NCBI GenBank assembly: GCA_963742415.1
Contig: CAVULX010000003.1
Span: 512,001-576,000 of the forward strand
Length of the DNA stretch: 64,000 bases
From: an uncultured Parachlamydiaceae bacterium
Lineage (GTDB): Bacteria; Chlamydiota; Chlamydiia; Chlamydiales; Parachlamydiaceae
Reading direction: 5' to 3'
Part shown: one piece after another, positions 10,336 through 26,088 of the stretch
How positions within the stretch are numbered: the first letter of the stretch is position 1
How the letters are laid out: each line of letters starts with the position of its first letter
Position numbers and translations under genes: made by a program
Notes under the pieces: generated by a model
What the model was told of the DNA's origin: nothing
The model's database searches: none
What the model saw: the letters and a program-made list of their open reading frames with translations, nothing else

Positions 10336-11160
10336 ATGAATGCGGCTTCTATTTTGATAAATTCGGTCAGACCTTATTACGATGAAATAAAGACATTTGG
10401 TTCCAATAAAAAGGTATCCAAAGTTGTTTCCATCGCCTTGGAAGTGATGTTAAGGTTGGGGCATGCCTTCGCCGTTAATATGGCTTTTCGTTGGGCTTTT
10501 ACGATTTTTTTTGTGCCCAAACGGACCGTCTTTTCTTCTTTATTGCTTACTTCCGCCACTTTATACCTGGTTTCAAGAATTGCCGAATGTTATTTCAAGC
10601 CAAGTAAAATAAAGGCAATGGAACAAGCCTCCACCCAAGCAATCCTCGTTAATACTATCGCATTGCCCTTTAACACCTATGTCCATGAATGGGGTCATAA
10701 AGCAGCGGCTTTATCGACTTTTATCAATTCCGCACCAAAAATTCTCTTTAAATGGGGAGAAGGGAAGACGACGTATGCGATTTCCTATGGGTTAACACCT
10801 TTTGGAACTTTTTTGGGGAAACAGAATGCACTTCTTTTTATTACTGCTGCAGGGCTTTATGCTCCTACCATCGGAACCATTTCTTCGTTTGCCTTGAGTC
10901 ACATCTTGGTCAACTCCCATCCCCTTTTCAGCAATATTTTGACAGACATAGGTTTTAGCCAACTGGGCCAAATATTGGCCTATGGCCTCCCTACCTTAAT
11001 GCAAAAAGGAGTCTCTTGGGATTTGGAGAACGATTTTATTAAATTATGGCATGTGGGAGGAGTTCATCCCCTCGTGATGATGGCTTGTTTGCTGGCAATC
11101 CCTGTCACAGAGTACTGCATCCTGAAATGGACTAATAATTCCAGGGATAGCGGTAATTGA
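10336..11160 (+). CDS. Membrane metallopeptidase-like protein (M50-like)
   Basis: VHEWGH (HExxH) in hydrophobic context, downstream AAG and NDF motifs. Confidence 0.65.
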   Translation: MNAASILINSVRPYYDEIKTFGSNKKVSKVVSIALEVMLRLGHAFAVNMAFRWAFTIFFVPKRTVFSSLLLTSATLYLVSRIAECYFKPSKIKAMEQASTQAILVNTIALPFNTYVHEWGHKAAALSTFINSAPKILFKWGEGKTTYAISYGLTPFGTFLGKQNALLFITAAGLYAPTIGTISSFALSHILVNSHPLFSNILTDIGFSQLGQILAYGLPTLMQKGVSWDLENDFIKLWHVGGVHPLVMMACLLAIPVTEYCILKWTNNSRDSGN

Positions 11161-11260
11161 TCGCTAATAAGAGTATTAAGGCGATAATAATGAGGAAAAT
11201 GAAGGCAGCAGAAAGTTGTCCCGATGATAAAGGCCTTTGCCTTCTAAATCTCCTTCTCAT
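11132..11260 (-). CDS. Putative 42-aa single-pass membrane protein
   Basis: Hand translation MRRRFRRQRPLSSGQLSAAFIFLIIIALILLLAINYRYPWNY*; fills the intergenic gap. Confidence 0.4.
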   Translation of the reverse strand: MRRRFRRQRPLSSGQLSAAFIFLIIIALILLLAINYRYPWNY

Positions 11261-11303
11261 ATGATCGTCCCACAATTCGCTTAAGCCATTGACAAAAAGT
11301 CTC

Positions 11304-11726
11304 TTAAGGCTGCGATATAAAAAACTCGCGGATCCCTACGGCGACGGCGGTACCGATGAAGAGGAAGGGGGTCGCAATAAATAGAGCGAGCACAGTTCCA
11401 CCTAAGATGAGGCTTTTGACAATTCCATATTTCTCGAGATATCTCGGATAGTTTTTAAGTCTATTTGAGATCTCGGGAGCAAAATAAAGTCCAAAGATCA
11501 CGCCGATGAGGGTTGCTCCGTACCAAGGGGGTTCGAGGAATAATAACAATAGGCCGACAACTATGAGAACATAGGCGATCGTATCTCGCACATTGTTGGT
11601 GGCATAATTGTAGATTTCTTCCACCTTTTCATGTTTTTTGAAATTTTCAATGGAATCGCTCAGTTTATCTTTGAAAGATTTCTTGTCATCTTTATTCTGA
11701 GGATCTCCTGAAGGGGTATTTGTCAT
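11304..11726 (-). CDS. Hypothetical membrane protein
   Basis: 140 aa, two hydrophobic hairpins, SD AAGGAG. Confidence 0.75.
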   Translation of the reverse strand: MTNTPSGDPQNKDDKKSFKDKLSDSIENFKKHEKVEEIYNYATNNVRDTIAYVLIVVGLLLLFLEPPWYGATLIGVIFGLYFAPEISNRLKNYPRYLEKYGIVKSLILGGTVLALFIATPFLFIGTAVAVGIREFFISQP

Positions 11727-11742
11727 TCTTTTCTCCTTAAAA

Positions 11743-11994
11743 TCATTGATTCAAATTTGGGTCATCTTGATTGATGATGGGAAAGGTTGTATTGGCCGCA
11801 CGCTGCAACTGGTTCCAGTAGCCTCGGTCGAGCCAACCATAGCTCCCATTCCAGAAATAGCAAAACCAAATTACTCCCCAGATCGGAAGCAATATATAGG
11901 TTAAAATAAGCCAGCGGGGGACAGAATTTTCATAGCTGGAAATCCTTTCATCTCCATACTCTTCGATAGAGGTTTTCTCATTCTTCACCGTCAT
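11743..11994 (-). CDS. Stand-alone cbb3 oxidase CcoP/FixP N-terminal domain protein
   Basis: ISSYENSVPRWLILTYILLPIWG matches I.EYDNPLPRW; no CxxCH. Confidence 0.75.
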   Translation of the reverse strand: MTVKNEKTSIEEYGDERISSYENSVPRWLILTYILLPIWGVIWFCYFWNGSYGWLDRGYWNQLQRAANTTFPIINQDDPNLNQ

Positions 11995-12244
11995 CTCCCT
12001 TATTTTCTGGCGGAAGCTTGTCCAGGTCGCCCTGATCTTCTTCCATCATTCTTATTTTAGGTTCTTCATCCATGTCAAGCTTTCCTTTTTTCCATAGGTA
12101 TAAAAAAGCTAAAAAAGCGCTGCCGACAAAAGCAAGTATGAAAGCGTAATGGACTAAGCTGCCGCATTCTCCGCTCGCATCTAATCCTTCCGATGCTGCA
12201 ATGTACTGCAAAGCTCTTATCTTCATATGCATACCCAAACTCAT
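11978..12244 (-). CDS. CcoS/CcoQ-like small membrane protein
   Basis: One TM followed by LWKKGKLDMDEEPKIRMMEED, resembling the CcoS W...GQFDD.E motif. Confidence 0.55.
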   Translation of the reverse strand: MSLGMHMKIRALQYIAASEGLDASGECGSLVHYAFILAFVGSAFLAFLYLWKKGKLDMDEEPKIRMMEEDQGDLDKLPPENKGDDGEE

Positions 12245-13530
12245 TTTATTTTCCTTTTTCCTTCAATGATGGCTTTTGTGTCTATGGGATCTTTTCCTAG
12301 CCACCAAGCTTCTGTTGGAGGGGTAATCCGGGTCCCTTTGGTCATCAAATATTGGTAGAGGGCTTCAAATTGGTGGTTAGGGACACCGATAAGCGAGCGG
12401 GATGAACCCCGAGGGTCGTTATCAAAAAAATGTTTAAAAGAAGGCATGATAGAACCTGCGCTCGCCGTTTTGGGGGACCAGAAGTGCCCTTTATGCCAAT
12501 CGCGGCTAGGGCGTTTGATCCCGGTCCTTGAAAGGTCGGGCCCGATCCGGCGGGTACCTGGGAAGGTGATCTTCTGAAAAATATATTCATTTGCTGAGGA
12601 GGGGGGAGCGGGGTAAGCAGCCGAGCCGTTTAGAACGACATCTTGCACGAGCGTCCTCGTTTGATCTGTATGGCAATACCAGCACCCTTCAATAGCGAAT
12701 AGGTGCTCCCCCATGCTAATGAGGTCTGCCCTTGAGAGAAATCCGAGGGGGTGCTCGCGCAATTGCTGTAAGTTTGTGATCTTTTGCCCGTTAGGATCAT
12801 AGCGCCATCCCTCTTCTTTGCCGAAAGTGAAATGGGAAACGCGGTATTCTTTAGGATTATTAATGTAGATTAAACCTGGGCTGTTATGATAAGGCTGTTG
12901 GAGTGTTCCATCCAAGATTTTATATTCGGAATCGACCCAGTTTTCGATGATCCCGTCGACGGGGGCGTTGGCAAATGCCTCTGTACCTCCCGGTTCGTAG
13001 AGTTCTAGGATTTCGAAATCAGGCTTGAGAAGACCCTGCTCCTTCCATTGGGGATTTTCTTTTTCCCATTTTTCCCTGTTGGCGCGTTGGATTTTTTCAG
13101 CTTTTTGCATGGGATCAAAGGGAGCCCCTGGAGCGGCTTGAGACGGAGAGCGCAGCATGAGGAGATGGGAGGTGAGTTTTAATTGGGGATCCTCCTCGCG
13201 TGTGACAAATTTTTCGAGTTCGGGGGGTGCGATAATTTTAAAAACATCGCTTTCATGAAAAGCTAAAAGGGTAAAACCCTCTTTAAGGTGATAGACGAAT
13301 TGCAATTCGGAACCCCCGCTTAAAGCGCTTCCGATGTAAAGGTTTGGATCGGAGACCTCATACATTTGCACTTGATAAGAGCTTGTGGGTTGTGTCCAGG
13401 TGGGGTCTATATAACTTGGCGCCACCAAAACAACCCCTATAGAAGCTGAAAAAAGCAAAATAATTCCGATCACAGTGAAGATTGCCGATTTATCAAGCGT
13501 GTGGATGAAGCTGTGGTTGTGTTCTGCCAT
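12241..13530 (-). CDS. ccoO: cbb3-type cytochrome c oxidase subunit II (enlarged, 429 aa)
   Basis: EGCWYCHTDQTR, GTRRIGPDLSR, WHKGHF.SP, SIMPSF; start at MAEHNH just after the ccoN stop. Confidence 0.9.
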   Translation of the reverse strand: MAEHNHSFIHTLDKSAIFTVIGIILLFSASIGVVLVAPSYIDPTWTQPTSSYQVQMYEVSDPNLYIGSALSGGSELQFVYHLKEGFTLLAFHESDVFKIIAPPELEKFVTREEDPQLKLTSHLLMLRSPSQAAPGAPFDPMQKAEKIQRANREKWEKENPQWKEQGLLKPDFEILELYEPGGTEAFANAPVDGIIENWVDSEYKILDGTLQQPYHNSPGLIYINNPKEYRVSHFTFGKEEGWRYDPNGQKITNLQQLREHPLGFLSRADLISMGEHLFAIEGCWYCHTDQTRTLVQDVVLNGSAAYPAPPSSANEYIFQKITFPGTRRIGPDLSRTGIKRPSRDWHKGHFWSPKTASAGSIMPSFKHFFDNDPRGSSRSLIGVPNHQFEALYQYLMTKGTRITPPTEAWWLGKDPIDTKAIIEGKRKIK

Positions 13531-13532
13531 AG

Positions 13533-14993
13533 TTATGCTTTTACCTGTATTAATCGATCTTCCTCTTTTGCTGGCTTCAATACAATGGTGTTGAAGACAT
13601 TCACGACGAAGAGGATGTTTGCAAATAAGATGATAAGGCCTCCGACGCCCCGTAAAATCCACCAAGTGCGCATGTCAGCGACAGTCTGCAAGAAGGGGAG
13701 AACCGTTAAGTTGCGATGAAATTGTTCATAAGTATATCCATCTGCCCAGGTGGCCCATTGCATCCCTTGAAAAAATCCCCCGACCCATAAAGCAAACAGG
13801 AAAGGGACGCTTCCCAATAGGTTTAGGCCGAAATGCCAATCTGCCAAGCTTTGGGACCAGAGGGGCTTTTTGGTGATCACCGGGATGGCTTGGTAAATGC
13901 CGGCGATAGCAAAAAAGGTGAAAGTGGCGTACAGGGAGATGTGGGAATGGCCGATCACCCAATCGGTCTTGGATGTGATTTCATTGATATTTCGCATGGC
14001 CATTAAAGGACCTTGTATGCAGGTCAACAAATAGAAAATATTTCCCATCATCAGGAAGCGGATAGGGGCGCTTTGGGTATATTCCGCCCACTGCGGCTTG
14101 AGGGTATAAAAGAGGTTGCTGACGACAGTCCAAACAGGGATAAACAGCCAGATTGAAAAGACGATCGCAGTAGTTTGGAGCCATTGTGAAATCGGGCCAT
14201 GGATCATATGGTGGGCGCCGATCCAGGCATATACGAAGGCAATTGACCAGAAGCCGATCATCGAAAGTTTATGGCTGTATATGGGAGTGTTGGCCAACTT
14301 GGGGAGAAAATAGTACGCTTGGGCTAGTCCCATTGGAGTAAAGATCAAACCCACGAGATTATGCACATAAAACCAGCTCACATTCACTCTAGAAATTCCA
14401 CCCGGAACTAAATTGATGACGTAGTAGCCGACAATTACAGTGAATGTTGTCCAGATCATTGTCCCCATGGTGTACCATAAAGAGACATACATTTTTTCAT
14501 ATTTGCGGGTGGCAATCGTCATGAATAAGTTTACGGCAACCAAAATCCAAGCCGCTGTAAATATGAGTTTGATGGGAAAGAACCCGACGAAAACGGGCAG
14601 TTCTGCATATTCCCATCCGAAGTTGGTTCCCCAGGGGTAGGAGTAATTGCCAACGGTGAGGGAAAACCACCATAAGGCTGCTGAGACATAGGCCATGCGG
14701 GAGCTCCAGAGGGGAACTCCGCAGAGGCGGGGAACAAAGTAATAAAAGAGCGCGATATCAGCCGAGAGGAGCCAATTGAGGGTTACGTTGGCTACGTGGA
14801 CCGGGCGGACCCTTCCAAAGTGGACATATTCCCCTGAAAAATAATCGGGCCAGACAAAGGTGTTGAAGGCGATATAGACCCCCACAGACATGCCTAAAAT
14901 CATAAAAATGATAGCTGGGTAGAGCATGACTTTAACAGGTGTGTCGTCATATATTGTTGGAGGAGGTGATACTGCGGCCGTGCTTGTTGTCAT
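13533..14993 (-). CDS. ccoN: cbb3-type cytochrome c oxidase subunit I
   Basis: FGRVRPVH, WEYAELP, MYVSLWY, WFYVHNLVG, YAWIGAHH, TDWVIGHSH. Confidence 0.95.
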   Translation of the reverse strand: MTTSTAAVSPPPTIYDDTPVKVMLYPAIIFMILGMSVGVYIAFNTFVWPDYFSGEYVHFGRVRPVHVANVTLNWLLSADIALFYYFVPRLCGVPLWSSRMAYVSAALWWFSLTVGNYSYPWGTNFGWEYAELPVFVGFFPIKLIFTAAWILVAVNLFMTIATRKYEKMYVSLWYTMGTMIWTTFTVIVGYYVINLVPGGISRVNVSWFYVHNLVGLIFTPMGLAQAYYFLPKLANTPIYSHKLSMIGFWSIAFVYAWIGAHHMIHGPISQWLQTTAIVFSIWLFIPVWTVVSNLFYTLKPQWAEYTQSAPIRFLMMGNIFYLLTCIQGPLMAMRNINEITSKTDWVIGHSHISLYATFTFFAIAGIYQAIPVITKKPLWSQSLADWHFGLNLLGSVPFLFALWVGGFFQGMQWATWADGYTYEQFHRNLTVLPFLQTVADMRTWWILRGVGGLIILFANILFVVNVFNTIVLKPAKEEDRLIQVKA

Positions 14994-17900
14994 GGGGTTC
15001 CTTTCTCTTTGTTAAATTCTGCTAATAACTGGTTTTGCTTTTGCCTGGAACGAACAGCGTCTTCAAAACCGGTGACCACCCTTTTTTTTATTTTTAAATA
15101 GGAGGAGATTTGGTTGTTGAGAGCTGTAAGTTCGTTTATTTTGTCTTGTGAAGCGAGTTTACCTTCGACAATTAATTTTCTAGCTTCTAATTCTGTTATT
15201 TTTCCATTTAAGTCATCGATAATTTGTTTTTCTAACTCAGTTAAAGTTTTTTCCTTTTCAGGATCTAGCGAAGCATTCAATTTACCATCGTTGAATGTAT
15301 AAACCATTGTTTTTAATTTTACTAACTTTAGTAGATCGTTAAAGTCTTTCTTATCATCCAGTTTGAGCAAAGCTAGTCCAATTCCTTGATAAATTTCCTG
15401 TTCGGAAGCAATTTCGGTTTTTAAATTTGTGAGCAATGAATCTAATTTCTGCTGTTTTTTCAGTTCTGAGAGGTTATTAAGCTCTTGTTGATAAATTTCT
15501 AAAGATTCATGGGACAACCCTTGTTGGGAGTTGATTTCGTCGTAAAGCCGCTCCCTTTTGGCTTGCAGGTTTTTGTGCATCTCTTGAGCTTTTGCGAGAG
15601 TAGGGTAGAGCTGGATTCGGGCATTTTCTACTGTCAAAATCCCGTTTTCGTAGCTTGCATATAAAGCGCTAAAAAGCTCTTCCCGAAGGTGTAGCTCTTG
15701 AGTTAGAGAACGGATGTAGATGACGAGTTGAAGCCGTTGAAGGGAGTTTGTTAAATCCCCCCACGGGGTCATTGCTGTGCCTGGAACCCCATATTTAATC
15801 GAACGGAGCAGCCTTAAATCGTCGCGGGTTAAGCTCCAATCCAGATTAGTTAGCATGCGGGGTTTAGCGTCTTTCATGGCGCTTGCACGGAGGCCTGTTC
15901 CATCGGCATCATGCCCATGGCAGATGGAGCAATTGAGTTGAAAGAAGGCATCTCCTTGGTCGATGTTTTCTTGGGTAAAGTATTTTTTCTTGATGTAATA
16001 AGCATATTTTTCTGGGCCGTTCGGATTAGGGACGACATCAAAGACGTCACTTACTTTAAGATTTTCCTCCTCCTCATTGCTTGGAGAGGGAACAGGCTTT
16101 AAAGAAGCGTAATACCCTTTTCCTGAGGGGACGAGACTTCGCAGTAGATCCAGAGATTCCGAATTCAGGCTTGAATGGGGGTTGAGGTCTTCCTCTTTCC
16201 CACTTTTGAGTTTGTTCCCCTCCTCTTCGAGTTCCTTTAGCACATCTTCAGGGGTGTAGTTCCATTTGGGGACATCTTGCGCACCCCTAATGACGTTTCC
16301 TCCTGGAAGCGAAGAAAACATCCAATCCACTAACCGTTTGATTTCAGATTGGTTTAGGACAGGGATATTGTCCATCATCGGCTTATGGGCAGCCACCTCT
16401 CCCCAGGGGGGCATTGGAGTCCCTTTGACCCCGTGTGTGATTGAGTTAATGACCCTTTCTTTTGTCAGATTTCTAAGAAAATCGGTATTTCTCAAATTTT
16501 TAGGTATAGGATAAATCCATTCCGCAACCGGGCCATTCCCTTGCATGAACTCCCCGTGGCATTGGGAACAATGGATTTGGAAAGCTTGGGCTGGATTGAA
16601 GCCCCGATGTTCCCAGATGGCCTTGATCTCATCCCGGTTGTGCTTCCCAAGGACATCCAGCATGTTGGTCAGAGCATAAAATTTTGTGTCATCGAAAGGC
16701 ATGACGGGCATAATCGAGCGGGGGACATGGCTTGCGGGATTGTGAAAGTGTTCCATGAGCCATTCGTCGGTGCGGTAAACTCCCGACCAATTAGGTCTGG
16801 GACCAATCACTCTTCCCAGTCCGTACTCCTGAATGAACATCATTAACACGTTGTGGACCCGCTCTTTCCATTGTTGAAGGTCGGCCTCGATTTGGGCCTT
16901 TTCTTGCGGATCTTTTGCCGCTGCGGCTTTCAATTGAGATGCGTGGTTCTTGGCTCTGGCCGCATATTTAAAGCTTGTGTAGAGCGATTCAACTTGCCCT
17001 GGAACAATTTGATCGATCTCTTCAATGATCGAGCCTTGGCGTACATCAGGGGTAATATGTTGGTCTATTTCAGCAGCATGGGCGTCAAGAGTTTTGACAA
17101 GCTCGCTTCCGATAATGGTCTCTGGGAATAGGTTTTTAAACCACTCATGCTCTTGGTATAGATCATCGAAATTCAGGTTCCCCTTTTTTTCTTTTTCGAT
17201 GTTAAAGCCGACATTAGACTCAAACCCTTTTAACCGATGGCAAGCCGAGCATCCCTCTGTGGCAAAGACCAGCATGGCATAGCGGAGATCTTTGATTTTT
17301 CCGGCGGGAATAGCCTTTTCCCAAGGAAGTTTTTTTCCTGCTTCCCATTCTTGGATGGTTGTCTTGTAAGCGGTTTCTGAAATAGCCTTTCGATCTCCTG
17401 TTTGAGCGAGAAGAAATGTGACGAGATCTTCTAGGTCTTCGTGATCCATTTTATAGTTGGGCATGGTTGAAGTAGGGAGGTCGGCTTGAGGCCAAACGAT
17501 TGATTCTTTGATGAACCAGGGGTAGCTTTTCCCCTCCCTCGTTAATTCCGGGCCGACGCCTCCCCGGGCAAAACCTGCAATCCGGTGGCAGGCTCCGCAA
17601 GCTTGGGAAATGTAAAGCTGCTCCCCTCGATGATAGTTTTTTGTTAACAGATCTACTTCAGAGGCCATTTCTGAAACGACTTTTTGATCATTTACGACTT
17701 TTTGAAAGGATGTTTCGGTGTCTCTGAGATGCTGCATGATCTCTTTTTCTAGCTGCAGCTTTTCCATTTTTACAAAGATAGAGCCTTTTCCGGGGTCGCT
17801 TTGATGTTCCTTAAGGAACATATTGATGGTTTGATCAGCGGCGCCTTTCTCTTTTGCTTGATTGACAAGCGCTTGCGTCAGCTGTGGGGAACCCAAGATG

Positions 17901-19063
17901 TTTGTTATCGCTTGTTCGATCTGCCTTTTAGCTCCTTCTGAGCTAGAGCTGGTTTTACTCAGATATTGCGATTGTGCATTAAATTGGTCTTGCTCTTTTT
18001 GCGGGAGGGTGAAATCTTGCGATTTGCTTTGAACCTCATTAAGAGACTGTTCGTAGCCGATTTGTTCTATGCGGATGAGAAGATTTAATAATGCCGCCAA
18101 CGCATTTTTTTCGTCGTCAAAAGCCACCTGCACCGCATTTGAAATTTTTCCCCGTTTTTCCACCACGTTTCCGGCGAAGTTCGCTGCTCCAAAGAGTGTG
18201 GATGCGCTGTCTTGGTGGCAATTCATACATTTTGCTTGAATCAGGGCGTTAACTAAGATAGGGGTCGTCTGAAAAAGAAGCTCATGGCCAGGTTTGTTAT
18301 TGAATACTCTGGCAAAGAGGGGATCATTGTCAGGATCTTGTTCGGTAAAAATGGGTTTCGGTCCCATGAATTCCGGTTCATAATCTCCATCGAAAATAGG
18401 ACCATGAGCTTTTTCTGTGGTTAAACCGCGGCCGTTTCCGCTGTGGCATGAAGTGCACCCAAATTCCGATATAGGGTGATATTCAAAAGGGCGAGTTTCC
18501 ATCCCCATCAAGGGGTGCATCTGCAAGACTTTTGTGACGTCGTAAACGTGATCCCCTACATGGGCTGTTTTGAGATCTTTATAAGCTTTGGCTTGAGCCA
18601 ATCGAGCTGAGACCTGGTCCCCTTTTCCACTCTCTTCCAATTCTTGATTCTTTTTTTGATCGGTGAGTTTTTCTATTTCTTCATCCAAACGCAGCCATAC
18701 ATAATTTTCGTTGGGGATTTGAATGGGCTTCCCTTCGGCATCCCGTTCAATGTTGCCATTGACATTCATAGCAATTTTTGTAGGGGAAAAATGGGGAAAC
18801 TGCAAGGCCACGTGGCAAGAGGTGCATCGATCAATGATGGGGGGCCCTTTATCTTCACGCTCTAAGACAATTTGTTTCACCTCTGTCTTGAAATCGGGGG
18901 GAGATTCCCCCGTGTAGGAGGAGCGAAATCTTTCTAAAGAGATGTAGTCCTCTTGATAAATTTTGTATTCAGGGAAAATTTCCCGGCTCAAAAAAGCTCC
19001 AAACAGGACCGTAGCTACGATGCCAGCAGCGATAAGAGAGTATTGATAGATTTCTGCGCGCAT
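14990..19063 (-). CDS. Large membrane-anchored multiheme cytochrome c (7 CxxCH)
   Basis: N-terminal TM; CTSCH, CTSCH, CMNCH, CGACH, CSACH, CSQCH, CSICH; C-terminal coiled-coil-like region. Confidence 0.9.
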   Translation of the reverse strand: MRAEIYQYSLIAAGIVATVLFGAFLSREIFPEYKIYQEDYISLERFRSSYTGESPPDFKTEVKQIVLEREDKGPPIIDRCTSCHVALQFPHFSPTKIAMNVNGNIERDAEGKPIQIPNENYVWLRLDEEIEKLTDQKKNQELEESGKGDQVSARLAQAKAYKDLKTAHVGDHVYDVTKVLQMHPLMGMETRPFEYHPISEFGCTSCHSGNGRGLTTEKAHGPIFDGDYEPEFMGPKPIFTEQDPDNDPLFARVFNNKPGHELLFQTTPILVNALIQAKCMNCHQDSASTLFGAANFAGNVVEKRGKISNAVQVAFDDEKNALAALLNLLIRIEQIGYEQSLNEVQSKSQDFTLPQKEQDQFNAQSQYLSKTSSSSEGAKRQIEQAITNILGSPQLTQALVNQAKEKGAADQTINMFLKEHQSDPGKGSIFVKMEKLQLEKEIMQHLRDTETSFQKVVNDQKVVSEMASEVDLLTKNYHRGEQLYISQACGACHRIAGFARGGVGPELTREGKSYPWFIKESIVWPQADLPTSTMPNYKMDHEDLEDLVTFLLAQTGDRKAISETAYKTTIQEWEAGKKLPWEKAIPAGKIKDLRYAMLVFATEGCSACHRLKGFESNVGFNIEKEKKGNLNFDDLYQEHEWFKNLFPETIIGSELVKTLDAHAAEIDQHITPDVRQGSIIEEIDQIVPGQVESLYTSFKYAARAKNHASQLKAAAAKDPQEKAQIEADLQQWKERVHNVLMMFIQEYGLGRVIGPRPNWSGVYRTDEWLMEHFHNPASHVPRSIMPVMPFDDTKFYALTNMLDVLGKHNRDEIKAIWEHRGFNPAQAFQIHCSQCHGEFMQGNGPVAEWIYPIPKNLRNTDFLRNLTKERVINSITHGVKGTPMPPWGEVAAHKPMMDNIPVLNQSEIKRLVDWMFSSLPGGNVIRGAQDVPKWNYTPEDVLKELEEEGNKLKSGKEEDLNPHSSLNSESLDLLRSLVPSGKGYYASLKPVPSPSNEEEENLKVSDVFDVVPNPNGPEKYAYYIKKKYFTQENIDQGDAFFQLNCSICHGHDADGTGLRASAMKDAKPRMLTNLDWSLTRDDLRLLRSIKYGVPGTAMTPWGDLTNSLQRLQLVIYIRSLTQELHLREELFSALYASYENGILTVENARIQLYPTLAKAQEMHKNLQAKRERLYDEINSQQGLSHESLEIYQQELNNLSELKKQQKLDSLLTNLKTEIASEQEIYQGIGLALLKLDDKKDFNDLLKLVKLKTMVYTFNDGKLNASLDPEKEKTLTELEKQIIDDLNGKITELEARKLIVEGKLASQDKINELTALNNQISSYLKIKKRVVTGFEDAVRSRQKQNQLLAEFNKEKGTP

Positions 19064-19082
19064 CTATGATCCTTGTCGTGTG

Positions 19083-20408
19083 CTAATGCCTTGCATAGGT
19101 TTCGGTCCAAGGCCAGATCCATCCCCAATTGGCCCCTCTGAAAAAGGTGCCGATGACGATCAATATTCCCTGCCATGTCATAAAGGCTGTATAGAGGAAG
19201 ATCGCCACATAGCGGCTGCGGTGGAACCAGTACCCTTCCCCGTGGGGATTACGGTCCAGATAGGGGATGGACATCAACCCTAAAACGATGCCGATGGGAA
19301 TAGCAACCCCTCCCCAAAATGCATTATAGGCGACCATTTCTTGCAAGCCAAGAAAGTACCAAGGTGCTTTTGAGGGATTGGTGGGCTTGCTTGGATTCGC
19401 AGGTTCTTCTAAAGGGGCATCGATAAAGGACAATCCTAAAATTAAGACTAATGTCAACAGAAAAGCGACGAGTTCGGCTCGCAGCAGATGGGGCCATGTA
19501 AACACAAAGTTATAAGGCCCTTTATCGACAGTAGGACAGGTTCCTCGCACAAGCTCCATCAGGCCATAGGTTCGCTTAACACCCGGAGCAAAAGATTCTT
19601 TCGTATCGGACCGCTGCACCACGCGGTAAGGATCGGGGCGGATTTTATCTGGCGGGCGTGAAAGCCCTCCATCTTTCCGGATGCGCCAAAAGTGCACGCC
19701 GATCAGGGTTCCTGCAATAAGGGGCAAGAAAGCCACATGCAGGACATAAAAGCGGATCAAGGCATCTTGCCCCACTTTCGTCGAAGCCAGCAGCATCACG
19801 CGGTTGACATTGTATTCAAAACCCGGAAGATTGGGGACATAGCCTGCGATGTTCGTTCCGACGGTGATCGCCCAAAAGGCAAGCTGATCCCAGGGGAGCA
19901 GATAACCGGTAAAGGAAAGCAGCAGCGTCAAAAACATCAGCATGACCCCGATGACCCAATTGAAGCGGCGCGTTCCTTTGTAAGATCCTGTATAAAAGAC
20001 GCGCGACATATGCAGAAAGACAAAGAGCACCATCATGTGGGCGCTCCAGCGGTGCATGTTGCGGTACATCATGGCAAAGGGGGTCGTGTCTTGCCAATCT
20101 TTCATGATGTCGTAGGCGCGATCTTCCGCGGGAATGTAATAAAACATCAAAACGACGCCAGTGAACACGAGGATTAAAAAAAGGCTCATCGTAATCGAGC
20201 CCAGGCCCAAAGTGTAAAAAGGATCGAGGGAATGTTTGTGGCATTTGACAGGATGAAAATGGAGAAAAAAGTTTTTAAAGACAATTTCAGATCGGTCGAC
20301 ATCATTGTTGGGATAGTTATGTCGAAAAATCGAGCGCACAAATAAGGAAGGCAGGTTGGCTAAGTATTCTGCCCAAGATTCTCTTCTTTTTCCCTTAAAA
20401 ACAGCCAT
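19083..20408 (-). CDS. Cytochrome b of a Rieske/cytb complex (b6-like fused to subunit IV-like region)
   Basis: RNMHRWSAH..LHMSRVFYTGSYK, FTGYLLPWDQLAFWA, RFYVLH-x14-H, KAPWYF. Confidence 0.93.
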   Translation of the reverse strand: MAVFKGKRRESWAEYLANLPSLFVRSIFRHNYPNNDVDRSEIVFKNFFLHFHPVKCHKHSLDPFYTLGLGSITMSLFLILVFTGVVLMFYYIPAEDRAYDIMKDWQDTTPFAMMYRNMHRWSAHMMVLFVFLHMSRVFYTGSYKGTRRFNWVIGVMLMFLTLLLSFTGYLLPWDQLAFWAITVGTNIAGYVPNLPGFEYNVNRVMLLASTKVGQDALIRFYVLHVAFLPLIAGTLIGVHFWRIRKDGGLSRPPDKIRPDPYRVVQRSDTKESFAPGVKRTYGLMELVRGTCPTVDKGPYNFVFTWPHLLRAELVAFLLTLVLILGLSFIDAPLEEPANPSKPTNPSKAPWYFLGLQEMVAYNAFWGGVAIPIGIVLGLMSIPYLDRNPHGEGYWFHRSRYVAIFLYTAFMTWQGILIVIGTFFRGANWGWIWPWTETYARH

Positions 20409-20427
20409 AATATCTCCTTAACGCTTT

Positions 20428-20940
20428 CTAACCTGTTGGCGAATACCAAGCTTCATCCCAATCCAGTGTTGTTTTTGATTTATCCACCAAAATGTCTCCC
20501 GAAGCCCCTTTGAAGACAAAGAAATAGACCAGAGGCAAAGGAGCCGGCCCCCCTGTGTTTTTGCCATGGCGGTCATACGTCGATCCATGGCAGGGGCAAG
20601 CATATCCTGTTTCCACCATATTGACTGTGCATCCTAGATGAGTGCAGACCGCAGTTTGTACGCGCACTTTTCCCGATAGGGTTTCAATAAACACTTTTTG
20701 CTTGGGATTAAAGACTTTCCCGTCGCGGGATAAAACTTCTTCAGGCCTTCCGATGGAAAATACGCTCGGAGGAATTTTCATCGCATTGGGATAAAGAAAG
20801 CCTAAAAGGGAGACATTCGCCATGCCTGCAACACCGACTAGACAGGCCCCTACGCCCATCAGAGCCAGAAAGGAGCGGCGGGAGATCATCGGATCCTTAT
20901 CATCAGGATCGACATTCAATGAATTGCGGTATTTGGGCAT
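20428..20940 (-). CDS. Rieske [2Fe-2S] subunit
   Basis: Tat-type SRRSFL + TM; CTHLGC and CPCHGS. Confidence 0.95.
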
Positions 20941-20943
20941 GGT

Positions 20944-21075
20944 CTACTCCTCCTCTCGAAACATTTGATATTTCACATCTTCAGGGTCTTCAAATTGCCC
21001 TTTGCGCAGGTAATAAATATAAACCAACATTCCAGATCCTCCAAAAGCGATCGAACTGACAATCAGCCAGAGCAT
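20944..21075 (-). CDS. ccoS: cbb3 oxidase maturation protein CcoS/FixS-like, 43 aa
   Basis: Hand translation MLWLIVSSIAFGGSGMLVYIYYLRKGQFEDPEDVKYQMFREEE*; GQF(E/D)D motif; fills the gap between neighbours. Confidence 0.75.
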   Translation of the reverse strand: MLWLIVSSIAFGGSGMLVYIYYLRKGQFEDPEDVKYQMFREEE

Positions 21076-21079
21076 GTTT

Positions 21080-22919
21080 TTAACCTATCCAGCGGAAAGA
21101 ATAATTCATCACATCCATCGTCACGGCCTGCGTCGGACATTTTTCTGCACATAGTCCGCAGCGGATGCATAGATCTTCATCTTTTAGCATGGCCGTTCCC
21201 ATCAATGCTAATTCCTCATCTTCCATACTGACAGAATCGACTCCATAAAAATTATCGACAGCCCTTGCGCAGGTTGCCTTCGCCAAGATCCAAGTTTAAT
21301 TTGCTAATAGGAACCTGCTTCAAGCAATTGCATGGGCAGACATCGACGCATCCATTGCATTTGATGCAGAACGTCCCATCAAACACAGGACTGACATGGC
21401 ATTGAAGGCAGCGGTTGGCTTGCTGATGCGGCTTCTTCTTCGGTATAGTTATTTTCCACCATGTTCTGATTATGGATTCGAACATCAGGCGGCTGCATGG
21501 TCGGGAGCGCCCACTTGGTCCTTAAATAGGTCTTATCGCGCATCGGGGAGATTTCGGTAAATTCCCCTACAAATTCCTGATAGGGTGCGGTCCCCCGCAA
21601 ATCGCTGTCGATAGCTCGGGCGGCATCCTGCCCATGCCGTATGGCTGTAATGAATAAGGCGGGGCCAAAGGCGGCATCGCCGCCTGCATAGATCCCTTTG
21701 ACGGAGGTGCGGCCAGTTCCCCTTTCCGTTTTGATGATGCCGCGGTCCAAAACGAGCTGCTCTTTTTTATCCCATCCATTAAAGAGGCTCATATCCATCG
21801 ATTGCCCAATGGCCAACGCCATAGTGTCGCAAGGAATGACACGCTGTTTGTCGGGAATGAGTTTAGGGGCAAATCGTCCGGTATAATCAAAAAGGGAATA
21901 GATCTCTTGTACGCGCAATCCCGTAATTGCTCCATCACTATTCCGTTCCACCGCAATGGGCGCTAACCGGTTGATGATGGTGATCCCCTCTTCGAGGCCA
22001 TCTTCGATTTCAAATTCATCCGCTGTCTGCTCATCGCGTGTTTCTAGGCAAACCATAGTCACTTTTTTGGCCCCATTGCGGACAGAGGTTCGAGCGACAT
22101 CAAAGGCGACGTTTCCTCCTCCGACCACGATCATATTTTCGCCGATTTTCCATTCCTCTTCCATGCAGCGCACCCGCAAATACTCGATCCCGCGGATCAC
22201 ATCTGGCTCATCAGCTCCTGGAATAGGCAGATCGCGCGATTTCCATAGGCCGACTCCAATAAAGACGGCATCATACTTTTTTTGCAGTTCGGTCAGGGTG
22301 ATATCGCGCCCCACCTTCATGTTGTAATATATTTTGGCGCCCAGATATTCGATGGCATAGATTTCATTGAAGGCAATCTCATTTTTTAAGCGATAGGTAG
22401 GGACTCCATAGGTTAGCATCCCCCCGGGAATGCGCATCATTTCGTAGACATCGACCGCATACCCGAGGCGAAGAAGATCGTGCGCGCAAGTCAGGGAAGC
22501 GACCCCCGCGCCGATGCAGGCCACTTTGAGTCCATTGGGAGTTGGACTGGGTAGAGCCTCGGGCATAGCTCATTTCTAGGGATTTGACATGGGCTTCTTT
22601 ATCAAGGCCAAACCACTCATCCAGATACCGTTTTTGCGCCCGGATAGTCAATGTTTTATCGACCCGGTCGCGCCGGCAGGTGAGTTCGCAAGGGGCTCCG
22701 CAGATCATGCCGCAGATCGAAGCAAAAGGATTTGGTCCACGCGCAATTTTATACCCTTCGAGATAGATTGCCTGCATGCAGGGCAATCATATATCCGCGG
22801 GGATCGGTATTGACCGGACAGCCGTCGCGGCAATCGATCTGCCGGATATAATAATCGAGATCGGGAATGACGACATCGTAGATATCTCTATAGGCTGCAA
22901 TGACATCATCGTCAGACAC
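21080..22919 (-). pseudogene. GltD/NfnA-like FAD-dependent NAD(P)H oxidoreductase with C-terminal 2x[4Fe-4S] ferredoxin; four +1 frameshifts (possibly sequencing errors)
   Basis: SD GGAGG + GTG at 22919; removing four bases gives 611 aa: CRDGCP..ICGMICGAPCELTC, IGAG, GGMLTYGVP, VVGGGNVAFD, AGGD, RCLQC, CIKCNGCVDVCP, CIRCGLCAEKCP. Confidence 0.85.
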
Positions 22920-23039
22920 GTACACCTCCGCAACAAGGGGGAATGTATCAAACCAAGGAGATTTTTTAAATTGTTTATTTTTATTCTATAAGCTAATTTT
23001 TACCCCAACACTTGTTAGGATAGAGGAGGCAAGGTTGAA

Positions 23040-23654
23040 ATGAAAAAAGAGATAAAAAATTGTGTCCATTTGCTCCATGAGGCGGGATTATTAGCCAAAC
23101 TTCCCCGTTCAGGCTTTGCTTTCTTGGGAACAGGTCAGCAATCGGTGGCTGAGCATAGCCATCGGATGACTTTGACGGCTTATCTTTTGGCTTCTCTAAT
23201 GAAAAAGCCGGTAAACCTTCAAAAGCTTCTTTTAATGTGTTTAATTCACGATCTTCCGGAAGCTCGCATGGGAGATCTCAATTATGTCAACAAACTGTAT
23301 GTCGAGGCGAATGAAGACAAAGTGCTCGATGAATATGAGAAATTCTATCCGTGCGGCCAGGAATTTAGAGCTTTAATTCAAGAATACAACGAATCCCAGA
23401 CATTAGAAGCCCAATTGGCCCATGATGCCGATCAACTCGAAATGCTTTTAGTTTTAAAACAATTGAGCGAAGCAGGGAATTCCCATGCCATGAAATGGTT
23501 TGATAAAACAGAGGAGAGGTTGCAAATAAAAGAGGCTAAAGAGGTTGCCGCTGAAATAAGAACACAGTCATCGGACGCTTGGTGGCTTTATAATCCTGAA
23601 GATCCCCATTGGATTCATGGAGGTAAAAGAAAAAAAGAAAAAAAAGCAAACTAA
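23040..23654 (+). CDS. HD-domain phosphohydrolase
   Basis: LPRSG, QSVAEHS, LIHDLPEARMGD, DADQLE. Confidence 0.9.
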   Translation: MKKEIKNCVHLLHEAGLLAKLPRSGFAFLGTGQQSVAEHSHRMTLTAYLLASLMKKPVNLQKLLLMCLIHDLPEARMGDLNYVNKLYVEANEDKVLDEYEKFYPCGQEFRALIQEYNESQTLEAQLAHDADQLEMLLVLKQLSEAGNSHAMKWFDKTEERLQIKEAKEVAAEIRTQSSDAWWLYNPEDPHWIHGGKRKKEKKAN

Positions 23655-23775: not shown

Positions 23776-26088
23776 ATGACAGGAGGAATTCATTTACCTA
23801 AATTAGGATTATCCGAAGCCAAAGAAGCTGTCACATCAAATATAACCCGAATAAGAGATCAACTCAAAGGTATCCCCGAAAAAATTGAGGCAAACCAGGC
23901 TGGCCGTTCTTTTCTTCAAGCGCTCCCTACTGTGAAAGAAAGCGTCGAAAAAAAGATAAATGAGGTGAGAACAAAAATAAAAGATGAATTAAAAGAAGCG
24001 AAACCTGGATCCTCTGTAAAAGCGACTCGTCCCCCTGAGCAAATGCGGCAGCCGGCAAAAACAGAAAATAAACCCCAGTCCCCGCAATCTACCACTGCTA
24101 CAACTCCAAAAGAGGCCAAACCTCTTCCCCCTGTTCCGCCTTCAACAAGCAGGGTGGGGACTCCTCAAACAGAGAATCGAGCTCCAGCTTCCGAGCAACG
24201 CGCTTTTGATAGGGGGAGGACACAAACAAAACCTCTACCTCCGACTCCGCAAACTAAGACTTCCCCAACTAATCCAGTTCAGACACAAAGTGCATCTACA
24301 CCTATTCAGCAAGCAAGATCCCGAGAAACAAGAGCTCGAGGACCTTTGCCCATTCCGGTTCCGAAAGCGCCACCCCCAGGGGCAGGTGCAACCCCACAAC
24401 AAGCGGCGGTGTCTTCAGCTGCTGTGACTAGGCGGGCGCCCCCTCCGGTTCCCCCAGTGTCTGGCAGGCCCACCCTAATGCAAACAGCTGCACCGAAAAC
24501 CCAAACACCTTCAATGCCAAAACCGTTCAATTCCATGAACACTACAAATCAAGTGGCGAATGCCGTGCTTACTGCTCCTCCTCCTCCAAAAAGCGGCTTA
24601 GAGATTTTGGCAAATGGGCCAAAACCTCTCATTCTCGAACCAGGCAAAACAGTAATCACTGAGAGCGAAGCTCAAAAACTCATTAAAGATACAGCAAATA
24701 CTATCACACGAATAGAACAACTTCCGGATGAAATTAACAAAACAAAAGCGCAGCTTCAGGCAGCGGGTGATTTGGTAGCCGGAGGAGCAAAAATCGCAGA
24801 AAATAGGGAAGAAATTGGCATCAAGTATTCAAATCTAAATAGTGAACTTTTCAAGAAAAGAAATGAACTTTCAAAATTAAAGGATCAATTGGAATCTTCT
24901 ACTTCAGCAAACCCTAAAACCAACTTAGAATTGGCGAAGGCACTGGATAGTCTTAAACAACTTGAGGACAAAAAGAAGGCGTTTCAAAGAGAACAAGCAA
25001 TTCAGGAATTCCTTGAAGAGGACAAGCGATTGGAAAATTATTTAACAAAAATGACAGATTTTTATCCAGCATTGCAAAAATTTTATGAGAATAAATTAAA
25101 TGTTAAAAATTTAAAAAATCGAAAAGAGGTCGAAGAAAAGCTCGCAATACTAAAACAATTTAATAAAGACCTTACCCCAATGGCGAAATTGCAAAGTTCA
25201 TTTGCGGAGGCTTTATCAAAGATGCCTCAATCTAATAAAGAGACCCATTTGGCACGGGAATTTTTAAACAGCGGAGTTCCTTATAGGGTAGCGCTGGCAG
25301 ACGCTTCTGTGAGTAGCGGCAAAATGGCAGAAGTTATGGCGGGGATTACAAAAGACATTAATGAGGGTTGGAACGAACTTTCTAAATTATTGCCTGATAA
25401 ACAAGTAAAAGACCAATTAATAGGCGAATTGACAAACGGCTCATTAACACCAGCCAAGTTAGTGCAAAAAGCGACTAAATATCATGTGCAGTTTGGACCG
25501 ATTTTGAGTGAAACACCTTCGGATGCAACTTTTCGAAAAGTGTTAGAAGCTGCTCAAAAGCATGCAGGCGATATTGCGGATCATTCTAATATTGCAAAAT
25601 CGTTTCAAGAATATCAGGATGTCAAGGAAATAAAAGGTAAGTTATCGACAGACAAATTAGACAACGCAGCCGCTTATTTACTTAAATTATGTGATAATGG
25701 TATTCCCCCAAGCTTAATCAAAGAAAAAAGAGATAAGTTTTCTTCCGACGAAAAATATAAGGAAGTTACCGATTTTTATGTTAAGCAAATGGAAGTTGCA
25801 TTTCGTCGTAAAGATGCCTCGGTTTTGATGAAAAATCTGGCACCTTTAGCGATGCTTTACAAAGAAAACAGTAAGGACGGAAATTTGAAAACGCTCATGG
25901 TTCAGTCGCGAGATATGGTTTTGAGAGACTTAAAATCCCAGATCGAGAAAGACCAGAGAAAGACAAAATCTACAGAGAGAAGCCCGGTTTTATCAGCCAA
26001 GTTTGCCCAAGTATTGCTTAACTGCCAAGGGGTTGCTACTTCAGATCCACTTCCCGCGGATCTTGATAAGTTTTTTAAACCAAAATAA
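23776..26088 (+). CDS. Pro-rich candidate effector with a DH(RhoGEF)-like region
   Basis: 770 aa; SD GGAGG; PxxP-rich linker, coiled coil, DH-like motifs. Confidence 0.75.
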   Translation: MTGGIHLPKLGLSEAKEAVTSNITRIRDQLKGIPEKIEANQAGRSFLQALPTVKESVEKKINEVRTKIKDELKEAKPGSSVKATRPPEQMRQPAKTENKPQSPQSTTATTPKEAKPLPPVPPSTSRVGTPQTENRAPASEQRAFDRGRTQTKPLPPTPQTKTSPTNPVQTQSASTPIQQARSRETRARGPLPIPVPKAPPPGAGATPQQAAVSSAAVTRRAPPPVPPVSGRPTLMQTAAPKTQTPSMPKPFNSMNTTNQVANAVLTAPPPPKSGLEILANGPKPLILEPGKTVITESEAQKLIKDTANTITRIEQLPDEINKTKAQLQAAGDLVAGGAKIAENREEIGIKYSNLNSELFKKRNELSKLKDQLESSTSANPKTNLELAKALDSLKQLEDKKKAFQREQAIQEFLEEDKRLENYLTKMTDFYPALQKFYENKLNVKNLKNRKEVEEKLAILKQFNKDLTPMAKLQSSFAEALSKMPQSNKETHLAREFLNSGVPYRVALADASVSSGKMAEVMAGITKDINEGWNELSKLLPDKQVKDQLIGELTNGSLTPAKLVQKATKYHVQFGPILSETPSDATFRKVLEAAQKHAGDIADHSNIAKSFQEYQDVKEIKGKLSTDKLDNAAAYLLKLCDNGIPPSLIKEKRDKFSSDEKYKEVTDFYVKQMEVAFRRKDASVLMKNLAPLAMLYKENSKDGNLKTLMVQSRDMVLRDLKSQIEKDQRKTKSTERSPVLSAKFAQVLLNCQGVATSDPLPADLDKFFKPK

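Follow-up and report, generated by a model that had tools for sequence, protein, structure and literature searches.

A conserved chlamydial gene cluster encoding a Rieske/cytochrome b module, a heptahaem cytochrome c and a divergent cbb3-type oxidase

Layout of the operon

The stretch analysed here (the window) is 64,000 nucleotides of DNA from an uncultured Parachlamydiaceae bacterium (assembly GCA_963742415.1, contig CAVULX010000003.1, positions 512,001 to 576,000 of the forward strand). It contains nine co-oriented genes on the minus strand (22925-11743), which encode an iron-sulphur (Fe-S) flavoprotein, a Rieske protein, a cytochrome b, a cytochrome c with seven haem-binding motifs and subunits of a cbb3-type oxidase. 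We think it likely that these genes are an old chlamydial operon, inherited within the phylum, in which an APWY-type, menaquinol-oxidising Rieske/cytochrome b module would be wired to a cbb3-type O2 reductase. Coordinates are window positions unless a contig is named, and gene calls were made from open reading frame (ORF) lists and from Pfam and NCBIfam scans:

22925-21080 (-), gene of a GltD/NfnB-like, NAD(P)-type Fe-S flavoprotein with a C-terminal 2x[4Fe-4S] ferredoxin domain; Fer4_20, Pyr_redox_2 and Fer4 (Pfam) match on separate pieces
21075-20944 (-), ccoS, cbb3 maturation peptide of 43 residues; PF03597 FixS, 28.4 bits (cut-off 23.1)
20940-20428 (-), Rieske [2Fe-2S] protein; Pfam Rieske, 36 bits
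20408-19083 (-), cytochrome b, 441 residues; Pfam Cytochrome_B, 128.9 bits
19063-14990 (-), membrane-anchored heptahaem cytochrome c, 1357 residues; CxxCH at residues 80, 203, 279, 489, 605, 832 and 1045
14993-13533 (-), ccoN, catalytic subunit I of a C-family haem-copper oxidase; COX1, 268.8 bits (cut-off 34.8)
13530-12241 (-), ccoO, monohaem subunit II, 429 residues from the ATG; FixO, 71.9 bits (cut-off 29.6)
12244-11978 (-), one-helix membrane peptide of at most 88 residues, at the position of ccoQ in canonical operons; FixS, 13.4 bits, E 0.066
11994-11743 (-), N-terminal membrane anchor of CcoP only (FixP_N), 83 residues, no haem domain; PF14715, 25.8 bits (cut-off 24.9)
11304-11726 (-), two-helix membrane protein of 140 residues, 16 nucleotides downstream of the nine-gene cluster; possible tenth cistron

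The genes of the cluster are tightly packed: neighbours overlap by 4 or 17 nucleotides, or else lie 2-19 nucleotides apart. The ORF lists and the family scans agree with the initial annotation of the window, made from the sequence alone, which had described nine close-packed co-oriented genes including a small ccoS, and the family scans bear out its claim that a Rieske/cytochrome b module is encoded together with a C-family oxidase. The 43-residue CcoS scored 23.2 bits with TIGR00847, under the cut-off of 28.35. Another ORF, 21252-21485, was considered as ccoS and rejected, as it is the ferredoxin-domain piece of the flavoprotein; the true ccoS lies at 20944-21075. A second peptide had been labelled CcoS-like (12244-11978). 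The gene is indeed present, with orthologs of 47-82 residues kept in 21 relatives, but at its FixS E value the label is weak. The peptide limited to FixP_N has orthologs of 65-106 residues in 24 relatives.

The 140-residue protein of the possible tenth cistron matched no Pfam or NCBIfam family above cut-off. It is not conserved: among 20 loci fetched from relatives it occurred only in that of G319, the nearest relative (locus L014, 59% identity). Four further ORFs of 274-770 residues lie near or beside the operon (23776-26088, 9076-10290 and 10336-11160, all on the plus strand, and 5808-6992 on the minus strand) and have no Pfam match at E <=1e-5. A fused HemC-HemD gene (porphobilinogen deaminase/uroporphyrinogen-III synthase), for a step of haem synthesis, is found 18 kb from the operon (41255-42583, plus strand).

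Catalytic subunits and accessory genes

CcoN could be aligned over its full length to CcoN of Pseudomonas stutzeri (3MK7_A, E 2.7e-58) and conserves His60, His207, Tyr251, His257, His258, His345 and His347 (3MK7_A positions). We take these to be two haem b ligands, one haem b3 ligand, three CuB ligands and the cross-linked tyrosine of helix VII. The claim of the initial annotation that CcoN keeps its His ligands and the helix-VII Tyr thus stands, as all six His and Tyr251 match in this alignment.

CcoO departs further from the known proteins. The FixO match is confined to residues 272-372, where C283, C286, H287 and M362 (CxxCH and Met) are invariant in 21 sequences. The protein is long (392-436 residues in 21/21 intact orthologs) because an insert of about 225 residues separates the transmembrane anchor from the haem domain. 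This insert is periplasmic, and was found in 250 proteins, of which the named ones are all chlamydial. Modelled alone, from an alignment of only 21 sequences, it reached a predicted local distance difference test (pLDDT) score of 84.1 and a predicted template modelling score of 0.82. It had no Foldseek match in the PDB (best E 0.85) and no usable match in the ESM Atlas, and a wide, exhaustive VIA-align search gave one of 48161 chains at Z >=2 (Z 3.0, 53 residues aligned). With an alignment of this depth, the lack of a structural match is no proof that the predicted fold is new. For the model of the whole of CcoO there was no Foldseek match at E <=0.001, and the VIA-align rows (Z <=3.7) covered the transmembrane helix alone.

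The dihaem subunit CcoP is missing. In the genome searched (4 contigs, 84.45% complete) all PF13442 matches above cut-off fall within the heptahaem protein, and only the 83-residue FixP_N peptide remains of CcoP. The insert of about 225 residues in CcoO and the missing haem domains of CcoP are the points of the system specific to chlamydiae.

The heptahaem protein has one N-terminal transmembrane helix and three N-terminal CxxCH motifs, followed by four class-I-type domains that include CcoP-like (TIGR00782, two stretches) and CcoO-like (FixO, E 1.3e-10) ones; Glu, Lys, Gln and Leu abound in its linker and C-terminal tail. Seven CxxCH motifs are present in 25/26 chlamydial orthologs, whose lengths range from 898 to 1450 residues. 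A total of 579 homologs were found, annotated merely as 'c-type cytochrome'. As CcoP is reduced to an anchor peptide, the simplest reading is that its haem domains now reside within the heptahaem protein. Outside this protein, nothing in the genome scored above the cut-offs of PF13442 or PF00034, two general cytochrome c families. By these models, therefore, the proteins of the operon would be the sole clients of the haem-attachment system, and the heptahaem protein would be the sole wire available between the Rieske centre and CcoO. A III-IV supercomplex had been suggested for the window, and given that neither a CcoP haem domain nor a cytochrome c was detected outside the heptahaem protein, direct wiring of the Rieske/cytochrome b module to cbb3 is plausible.

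The Rieske protein carries a twin-arginine signal (SRRSFL; TIGR01409, 17.8 bits, cut-off 16.7) and both cluster-binding boxes, CTHLGC and CPCHGSTY. Its Ser/Tyr signature, which is tied to potentials of 300-350 mV in the part of Baymann et al. 2012 available to us (PMC3509893), occurs in 26/26 chlamydial orthologs.

In the 441-residue cytochrome b, a b6-like N-terminal half is fused to a C-terminal half that resembles subunit IV. Among solved structures, cytochrome b6 matches its N-terminal half best (6rqf, E 4.6e-37). Thr stands where cytochrome b6 has Cys35, which binds haem ci. The protein lacks this Cys and, being fused, also the split organisation of the b6f-like 'green clade'. The best-scoring named models for the two halves are those of NCBIfam for ExtP (residues 44-250) and ExtQ (residues 304-434), although both scores lie under the equivalog cut-offs (247.6 vs 290 and 69.8 vs 150 bits, respectively). 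Four haem-ligand His, in pairs in helices B and D, and the Qo motif APWY do not vary in either of two alignments (11 and 33 sequences), and by this motif the protein would be placed in the APWY clade. Ahead of the first helix, residues 44-56 show the consensus NFFLHxHPxK, in which one His does not vary across 33 sequences drawn from many phyla. A cytoplasmic position is expected for this stretch, which could serve the flavoprotein side as a contact or as an extra haem ligand.

Cytochrome c maturation and Tat genes, to which the initial annotation had drawn attention, were found elsewhere in the genome. An intact system II for cytochrome c synthesis is encoded as a CcsA-like protein of about 620 residues with the WWD motif, just downstream of a 780-residue frame with weak ResB matches, and two DsbD_TM proteins and TatC are also present. 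The quinone genes and CcoGHI, which it had likewise named, were found in part. MenB (442.9 bits, cut-off 342.7) indicates the classical menaquinone route, while PF02621 (MqnA) of the futalosine pathway had no match in the genome, and a Cu-ATPase is whole (contig 4, 646401-648128; 428.8 bits, cut-off 397); CcoG and FixH are taken up below. The genome also encodes Na+-NQR (NqrF, 570.6 bits) and cytochrome bd. A second oxidase subunit I, an A-family COX1 (contig 4, 548621-549969), matches profile positions 1-196 and 189-436 in two frames and is either frameshifted or mis-assembled.

Descent of the cluster and the flavoprotein gene

In a phylum sample of 401 genomes, that of the window included, an orthologous CcoN was found in 95, among them 41 of the 45 genomes of the window's family; it was found in 0/30 genomes of a small-genome family (1.0-1.3 Mb) of the same order. 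An orthologous cytochrome b was found in 86/401, in addition to two distant ones at 34-36% identity. The two proteins occur together in 85 genomes, CcoN without cytochrome b in 10 and cytochrome b without CcoN in 1. CcsA was present in 94/95 CcoN-positive but only 15/306 CcoN-negative genomes, related genomes not being independent samples. Of the 20 loci fetched around CcoN in relatives, 18, from several families, have all of the cluster with its gene order unchanged, and one has only a divergent ccoN.

The organism had been taken for a chlamydia from the sequence alone, and this is borne out by the heptahaem protein and CcoO, whose named homologs belong to Parachlamydia, Parachlamydiaceae, Candidatus Protochlamydia phocaeensis, Candidatus Rubidus massiliensis and Chlamydiota, those of CcoO being annotated 'cbb3-type cytochrome c oxidase subunit II'. 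The cluster is flanked by housekeeping genes (recA, the RNase III gene rnc, a radA-like gene, hemC/hemD, dus and lipB), and the flanking genes are syntenic with G319 on one side. Thus, a check for chimerism gave no sign that the contig is chimeric at the cluster.

A named genome collection scanned with the cytochrome b alignment returned 80 loci, of which seven are chlamydial, an eighth (L086) branches within the chlamydial clade, and 72 are non-chlamydial (among L049-L128; Acidobacteriota, Planctomycetota, Verrucomicrobiota, Chloroflexota, Calditrichota, Omnitrophota, Nitrospinota, Bacillota and others). A full-length flavoprotein homolog (about 600-680 residues, with the ferredoxin domain) adjoins Rieske/cytochrome b in 53/72 of the latter, from Acidobacteriota, Planctomycetota, Verrucomicrobiota, Chloroflexota, Calditrichota, Omnitrophota, Gemmatimonadota and others. 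The flavoprotein, Rieske protein and cytochrome b are a widespread, uncharacterised three-gene module.

Quick maximum-likelihood trees, with Shimodaira-Hasegawa-like approximate likelihood-ratio test (SH-aLRT) supports, no bootstraps and long branches flagged, were computed for cytochrome b (92 rows, L073 being omitted for its length) and the flavoprotein (62 rows). In the cytochrome b tree the chlamydial rows formed one clade (SH-aLRT 100, stem 0.65), which lay in a 44-row group (SH-aLRT 90) with L074, L076, L078 and a mixed Acidobacteriota/Planctomycetota clade; the two Verrucomicrobiota rows were not its sisters. In the flavoprotein tree the chlamydial clade (100) was sister (98) to exactly four cbb3-linked Acidobacteriota, L073, L074, L076 and L078. 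These four resemble the chlamydiae in that Rieske, cytochrome b, heptahaem cytochrome c, CcoN, CcoO and flavoprotein are encoded in one cluster, and their seven-CxxCH cytochrome c has the same CcoO-like and CcoP-like domains. In contrast to the chlamydial clusters, in which the flavoprotein gene comes first, it follows ccoO; the cytochrome c is shorter (586-635 vs 898-1450 residues); CcoO is of the ordinary short kind (189-194 residues), without the insert; and in L076, CcdA/DsbD-like and FixG-like genes follow in the cluster.

Is the cluster a recently acquired foreign island, or the product of a chimeric contig? Its G+C content of 0.470 exceeds the genome mean of 0.417 (standard deviation 0.027 for 11-kb windows, of which 2.2% are as high), and the nearest non-chlamydial relatives of its flavoprotein are Acidobacteriota rather than other phyla of the Planctomycetes-Verrucomicrobia-Chlamydiae group. 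Furthermore, the accessible part of Baymann et al. 2012 (PMC3509893) ascribes the A1 and A2 Rieske/cytochrome b genes, including those of Parachlamydia and Waddlia, to lateral transfer. However, the orthologs keep the same order in nearly all the related loci, CcoN is found almost throughout the window's family, and cytochrome b and the flavoprotein each form one chlamydial clade on a long stem with an inner branching that groups families; the flanks are housekeeping genes, on one side syntenic with G319. A recent arrival predicts absence from the syntenic site in relatives and branching inside a non-chlamydial clade, and neither was seen. Shared order, the spread of CcoN, the single clades and the flanks together mean that any transfer predates the split of these chlamydial families. 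We regard a recent island or a chimera as hardly credible, and the raised G+C content as more likely a property of conserved genes than a mark of recent arrival. The horizontal acquisition by this organism that had been proposed for the cluster is not upheld, as it is common to many chlamydial families and its chlamydial copies form one clade. Our reading is that the cluster would have had a single ancient origin in chlamydiae, already joining all modules, followed by vertical descent with repeated loss, and at most one ancient exchange with an Acidobacteria-like lineage.

The initial annotation had given the first gene of the cluster as a flavo-Fe-S oxidoreductase. This identity holds: its best solved relatives are 9bov, 8oh5, 9n5u and 4ylf (E 1.7e-81 to 3.9e-65), and its conserved cysteines would bind about four clusters. 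A single open gene, which the annotation had implied, it is not. Three-frame translation gave five pieces (22925-22749, 22786-22379, 22566-21379, 21485-21252 and 21286-21080), which arise, relative to the intact 611-residue ortholog in G319, from four +1 insertions near 22766, 22547, 21431 and 21266. The gene is in one frame in 17/17 relatives that have it fully inside the fetched locus, and intact and adjacent in 17/20 of those loci. Comparison of 38 orthologous genes (46.0 kb) with their G319 counterparts revealed five frame changes, and the flavoprotein gene holds four of these. The sole other one is near 702032 of contig 3, where the ortholog of a 508-residue G319 gene lies in two frames.

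The clustering of frame changes in this one gene argues for a real pseudogene in this genome, and we lean towards this explanation. The chance that the four frameshifts are instead assembly errors, and that the living organism has an intact gene and a complete nine-gene operon, falls somewhat short of even. A genome that is 84.45% complete in 4 contigs can reflect indel errors; all four changes are single-base insertions, and the pieces have 84-94% protein identity to G319 and no in-frame stops. Selection to keep the gene is also suggested by its single frame in all 17 relatives and its presence in 8/8 chlamydial loci of the named collection. On the other hand, with a background of 1 frame change per 44 kb, at least four within 1.8 kb have a Poisson probability of about 1e-7, and none of the four insertions is in a long homopolymer. 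Other genes are also multiply hit, as expected of true pseudogenes: two P-type (copper-type) ATPase genes (contig 4, 523962-525610, and contig 3, 885005-886833) are each in several frame pieces. Such multiply-hit genes suggest real gene decay in this genome.

As assembled, then, the broken flavoprotein gene would leave the NAD(P) branch off in this genome and only the quinol-to-oxygen branch intact, and the exchange of electrons with NAD(P)H or ferredoxin that had been envisaged for the window is unsupported in this copy. In the relatives, the flavoprotein could be a subunit of the complex. When predicted as a complex, the flavoprotein and cytochrome b of G319 scored 0.56 (best control 0.00), with runs agreeing in at least 93% of contacts and a partner pLDDT of at least 81. 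Its adjacency to cytochrome b across phyla, with this prediction, fits a subunit on the cytoplasmic face of cytochrome b.

A number of observations weigh against the reading of an old operon that joins both modules in working order. The complex prediction is a weak pass: the mark was reached by 116/157 solved complexes and 2/215 mismatched pairs, and scores of <=0.60 are shared by only 18/157 solved complexes and both of the passing mismatches. CcoN and CcoO miss the NCBIfam equivalog cut-offs (TIGR00780, 264.4 vs 583.15 bits; TIGR00781, 59.1 vs 200.65 bits), so that by these scores they are divergent, not typical, members of their families, and the haem domain of CcoO was modelled poorly (pLDDT 30-40). 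The CcoG model TIGR02745 and FixH had no match in the 84.45%-complete genome. A scan of 10900-23400 gave 13 promoter-like and 17 terminator-like sites, no better than the 16.2 and 14.5 in shuffled sequences, which leaves gene spacing alone as the argument for co-transcription. Parts of the cluster have also been lost or broken in other chlamydiae. In G055, a complete 2.44-Mb genome of the same family (L017, 2669-6920), ccoN, ccoO and the two small genes are kept, the Rieske and flavoprotein genes are short remnants, and those of cytochrome b and the heptahaem protein are gone; in G195, ccoN and ccoO are broken; and in G379, cytochrome b contains three TGA stops. Finally, with the flavoprotein broken as assembled, the operon of the window may be under relaxed selection in its lineage.

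Taken further, the whole operon could be decaying and no longer at work in this lineage, the flavoprotein breaks being its first visible lesions. The broken flavoprotein gene, the A-family subunit I split into two frames, the P-type ATPase genes in pieces and the partial losses in related lineages would all fit such decay. Against this, the other eight genes (9.3 kb) are open, every catalytic residue tested is kept, identity to G319 is 66-95%, a normal range for orthologs, and the cytochrome c synthesis genes are intact. We therefore consider decay of the whole operon improbable.

Electron flow and relation to known systems

The gene content, the catalytic residues, the conservation and the accessory genes described above are consistent with the following path, which, like a supercomplex and the role and direction of the flavoprotein, we infer from sequence. 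Menaquinol would be oxidised at the Qo site, and one electron would pass to the Tat-exported Rieske cluster. It would then move along the membrane-anchored heptahaem cytochrome c, which would stand in for both cytochrome c1/f and dihaem CcoP, to the haem of CcoO, and from there to haem b and the haem b3-CuB site of CcoN, where O2 would be reduced. The cbb3 route may thus be a high-affinity, hard-wired cytochrome c branch beside cytochrome bd. In the relatives, the NfnB/GltD-like flavoprotein of 611 residues and about four Fe-S clusters, encoded by the first gene of the operon, probably sits at the cytoplasmic face of cytochrome b and would connect its low-potential b haems with NAD(P)(H).

An intact flavoprotein may, alternatively, be an input module, through which electrons would run from NAD(P)H by way of FAD and Fe-S clusters to the b haems or the quinone site, giving an NAD(P)H-to-O2 chain, or the cytochrome b module may work in reverse. 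Flavoproteins of the NfnB/GltD kind are reversible with NAD(P)H, and in the portion of Kao and Hunte 2014 available to us (PMC4122944) it is argued that APWY-type complexes may run in reverse. Yet Na+-NQR is already available for the input of NADH, and the Ser/Tyr Rieske protein of all 26 orthologs together with a menaquinone pathway is an unusual pairing, which is the basis of the argument for output in anammox bacteria (PMC12954380, in the part accessible). An input role is doubtful in our view, though sequence alone does not decide between the two directions.

A bolder version of the output role is that assemblies with an intact flavoprotein, in the relatives and in other phyla, may be an O2-driven electron-bifurcating machine, with the CcoO insert as a docking piece that replaces CcoP. 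Of the two electrons from menaquinol at the APWY Qo site, one would go to O2 through the Ser/Tyr Rieske cluster, the seven c haems and cbb3, and this drop would pay for the passage of the second through very low-potential b haems, four Fe-S clusters and FAD, to reduce NAD(P)+. We consider this unlikely. If true, it would be an aerobic and far more widespread counterpart of the still unproven anammox mechanism, and environmental chlamydiae would make NAD(P)H from the quinone pool.

Returning to the operon as an inherited quinol-to-oxygen branch, the cluster is genuine, a variation on respiratory systems already known; it is ancestral and widespread in environmental chlamydiae, and partly in print. 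Novelty is reduced by two reports, each available to us in part: in Baymann et al. 2012 (PMC3509893), Kuenenia complexes 1 and 2 share group A2 with the cytochromes b from Parachlamydia acanthamoebae and Waddlia chondrophila, and Dharamshi et al. 2023 (PMC9816063) inferred that the last common ancestor of chlamydiae had a cbb3 oxidase (CcoO/N). From similarly partial texts, the Neochlamydia genome paper (PMC3991601) lists a 'cytochrome c oxidase complex', and the chlamydial respiration pangenome of Köstlbacher et al. 2021 (PMC8242063) gives only cytochromes o and bd as complex IV. In the main texts open to us, we found no account that treats the chlamydial operon as one unit, or that mentions the long CcoO or the absence of CcoP.

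The cluster would give environmental chlamydiae a complete cytochrome c branch, from quinol through Rieske/cytochrome b to cbb3. It also indicates that the NAD(P)-linked Rieske/cytochrome b design, discussed chiefly for anammox bacteria, is a common module in many phyla. The tie to an O2 reductase in chlamydiae and some Acidobacteriota points to a likely acceptor of high potential and would allow the bifurcation idea to be tested beyond anammox cultures. The copy in the window, its flavoprotein gene being broken, may be a natural 'minus-flavoprotein' variant.

Compared with the canonical cbb3 oxidase CcoNOQP of Pseudomonas stutzeri (3MK7/5DJQ), the window shares the six His and the helix-VII Tyr of CcoN, a monohaem CcoO with CxxCH and a conserved Met, and the assembly peptide CcoS. 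It differs in lacking dihaem CcoP, in the insert of about 225 residues in CcoO, in a peptide at the ccoQ position that is faintly CcoS-like, and in proteins that fall under the NCBIfam equivalog cut-offs.

The cytochrome b resembles the products of the Geobacter ExtOPQS genes (PMC5877670, consulted in part) in that the ExtP and ExtQ models are its top-scoring ones, with scores below their cut-offs. With the APWY clade of Kao and Hunte 2014 (PMC4122944) it shares the invariant Qo motif A-P-W-Y, but the proteins described there are split and often have WCMGG, whereas that of the window is fused and lacks the Cys. In the portion of this paper that we could consult, no APWY-type complex is characterised, and chlamydiae have 0 occurrences in its main text.

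A close parallel in design is with the Rieske/cytochrome b complexes of anammox bacteria that have an NAD(P) oxidoreductase subunit (Kustd1480-1485 and Kuste4569-4574 of Kuenenia stuttgartiensis), whose flavoprotein has been modelled on the cytoplasmic face of cytochrome b (PMC12954380, as far as accessible). Common to both systems are a Rieske protein, a b6-like cytochrome b with a part resembling subunit IV, a multihaem cytochrome c that takes the place of cytochrome f/c1, and a FAD/NAD(P) protein on the cytoplasmic side whose Fe-S clusters, about four, form a chain. Each also has a high-potential type of Rieske protein alongside a low-potential quinone. In the window, unlike in the anammox complexes, b6 and subunit IV are fused into 441 residues, the haem ci Cys is a Thr, the cytochrome c is heptahaem with class-I domains, and the encoded high-potential partner is a cbb3 O2 reductase, not a hydroxylamine-oxidoreductase-like protein. 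Kinship with Kuenenia is here that of the published grouping (PMC3509893, seen in part).

The bc1-cbb3 supercomplexes of Rhodobacter capsulatus (6XKW) and Pseudomonas aeruginosa (8SMR/8SNH), whose CcoN chains are among five solved matches to CcoN of the window, likewise connect Rieske/cytochrome b to a haem-copper oxidase without a freely diffusing carrier. Their two complexes are encoded apart, however, and their cytochrome b is of the bc1 type. Actinobacterial bcc-aa3 supercomplexes have a built-in dihaem link. In the window, by comparison with the bc1-cbb3 assemblies, a single operon encodes a b6/APWY cytochrome b, the oxidase and a seven-haem link between them, and their products may form a supercomplex.

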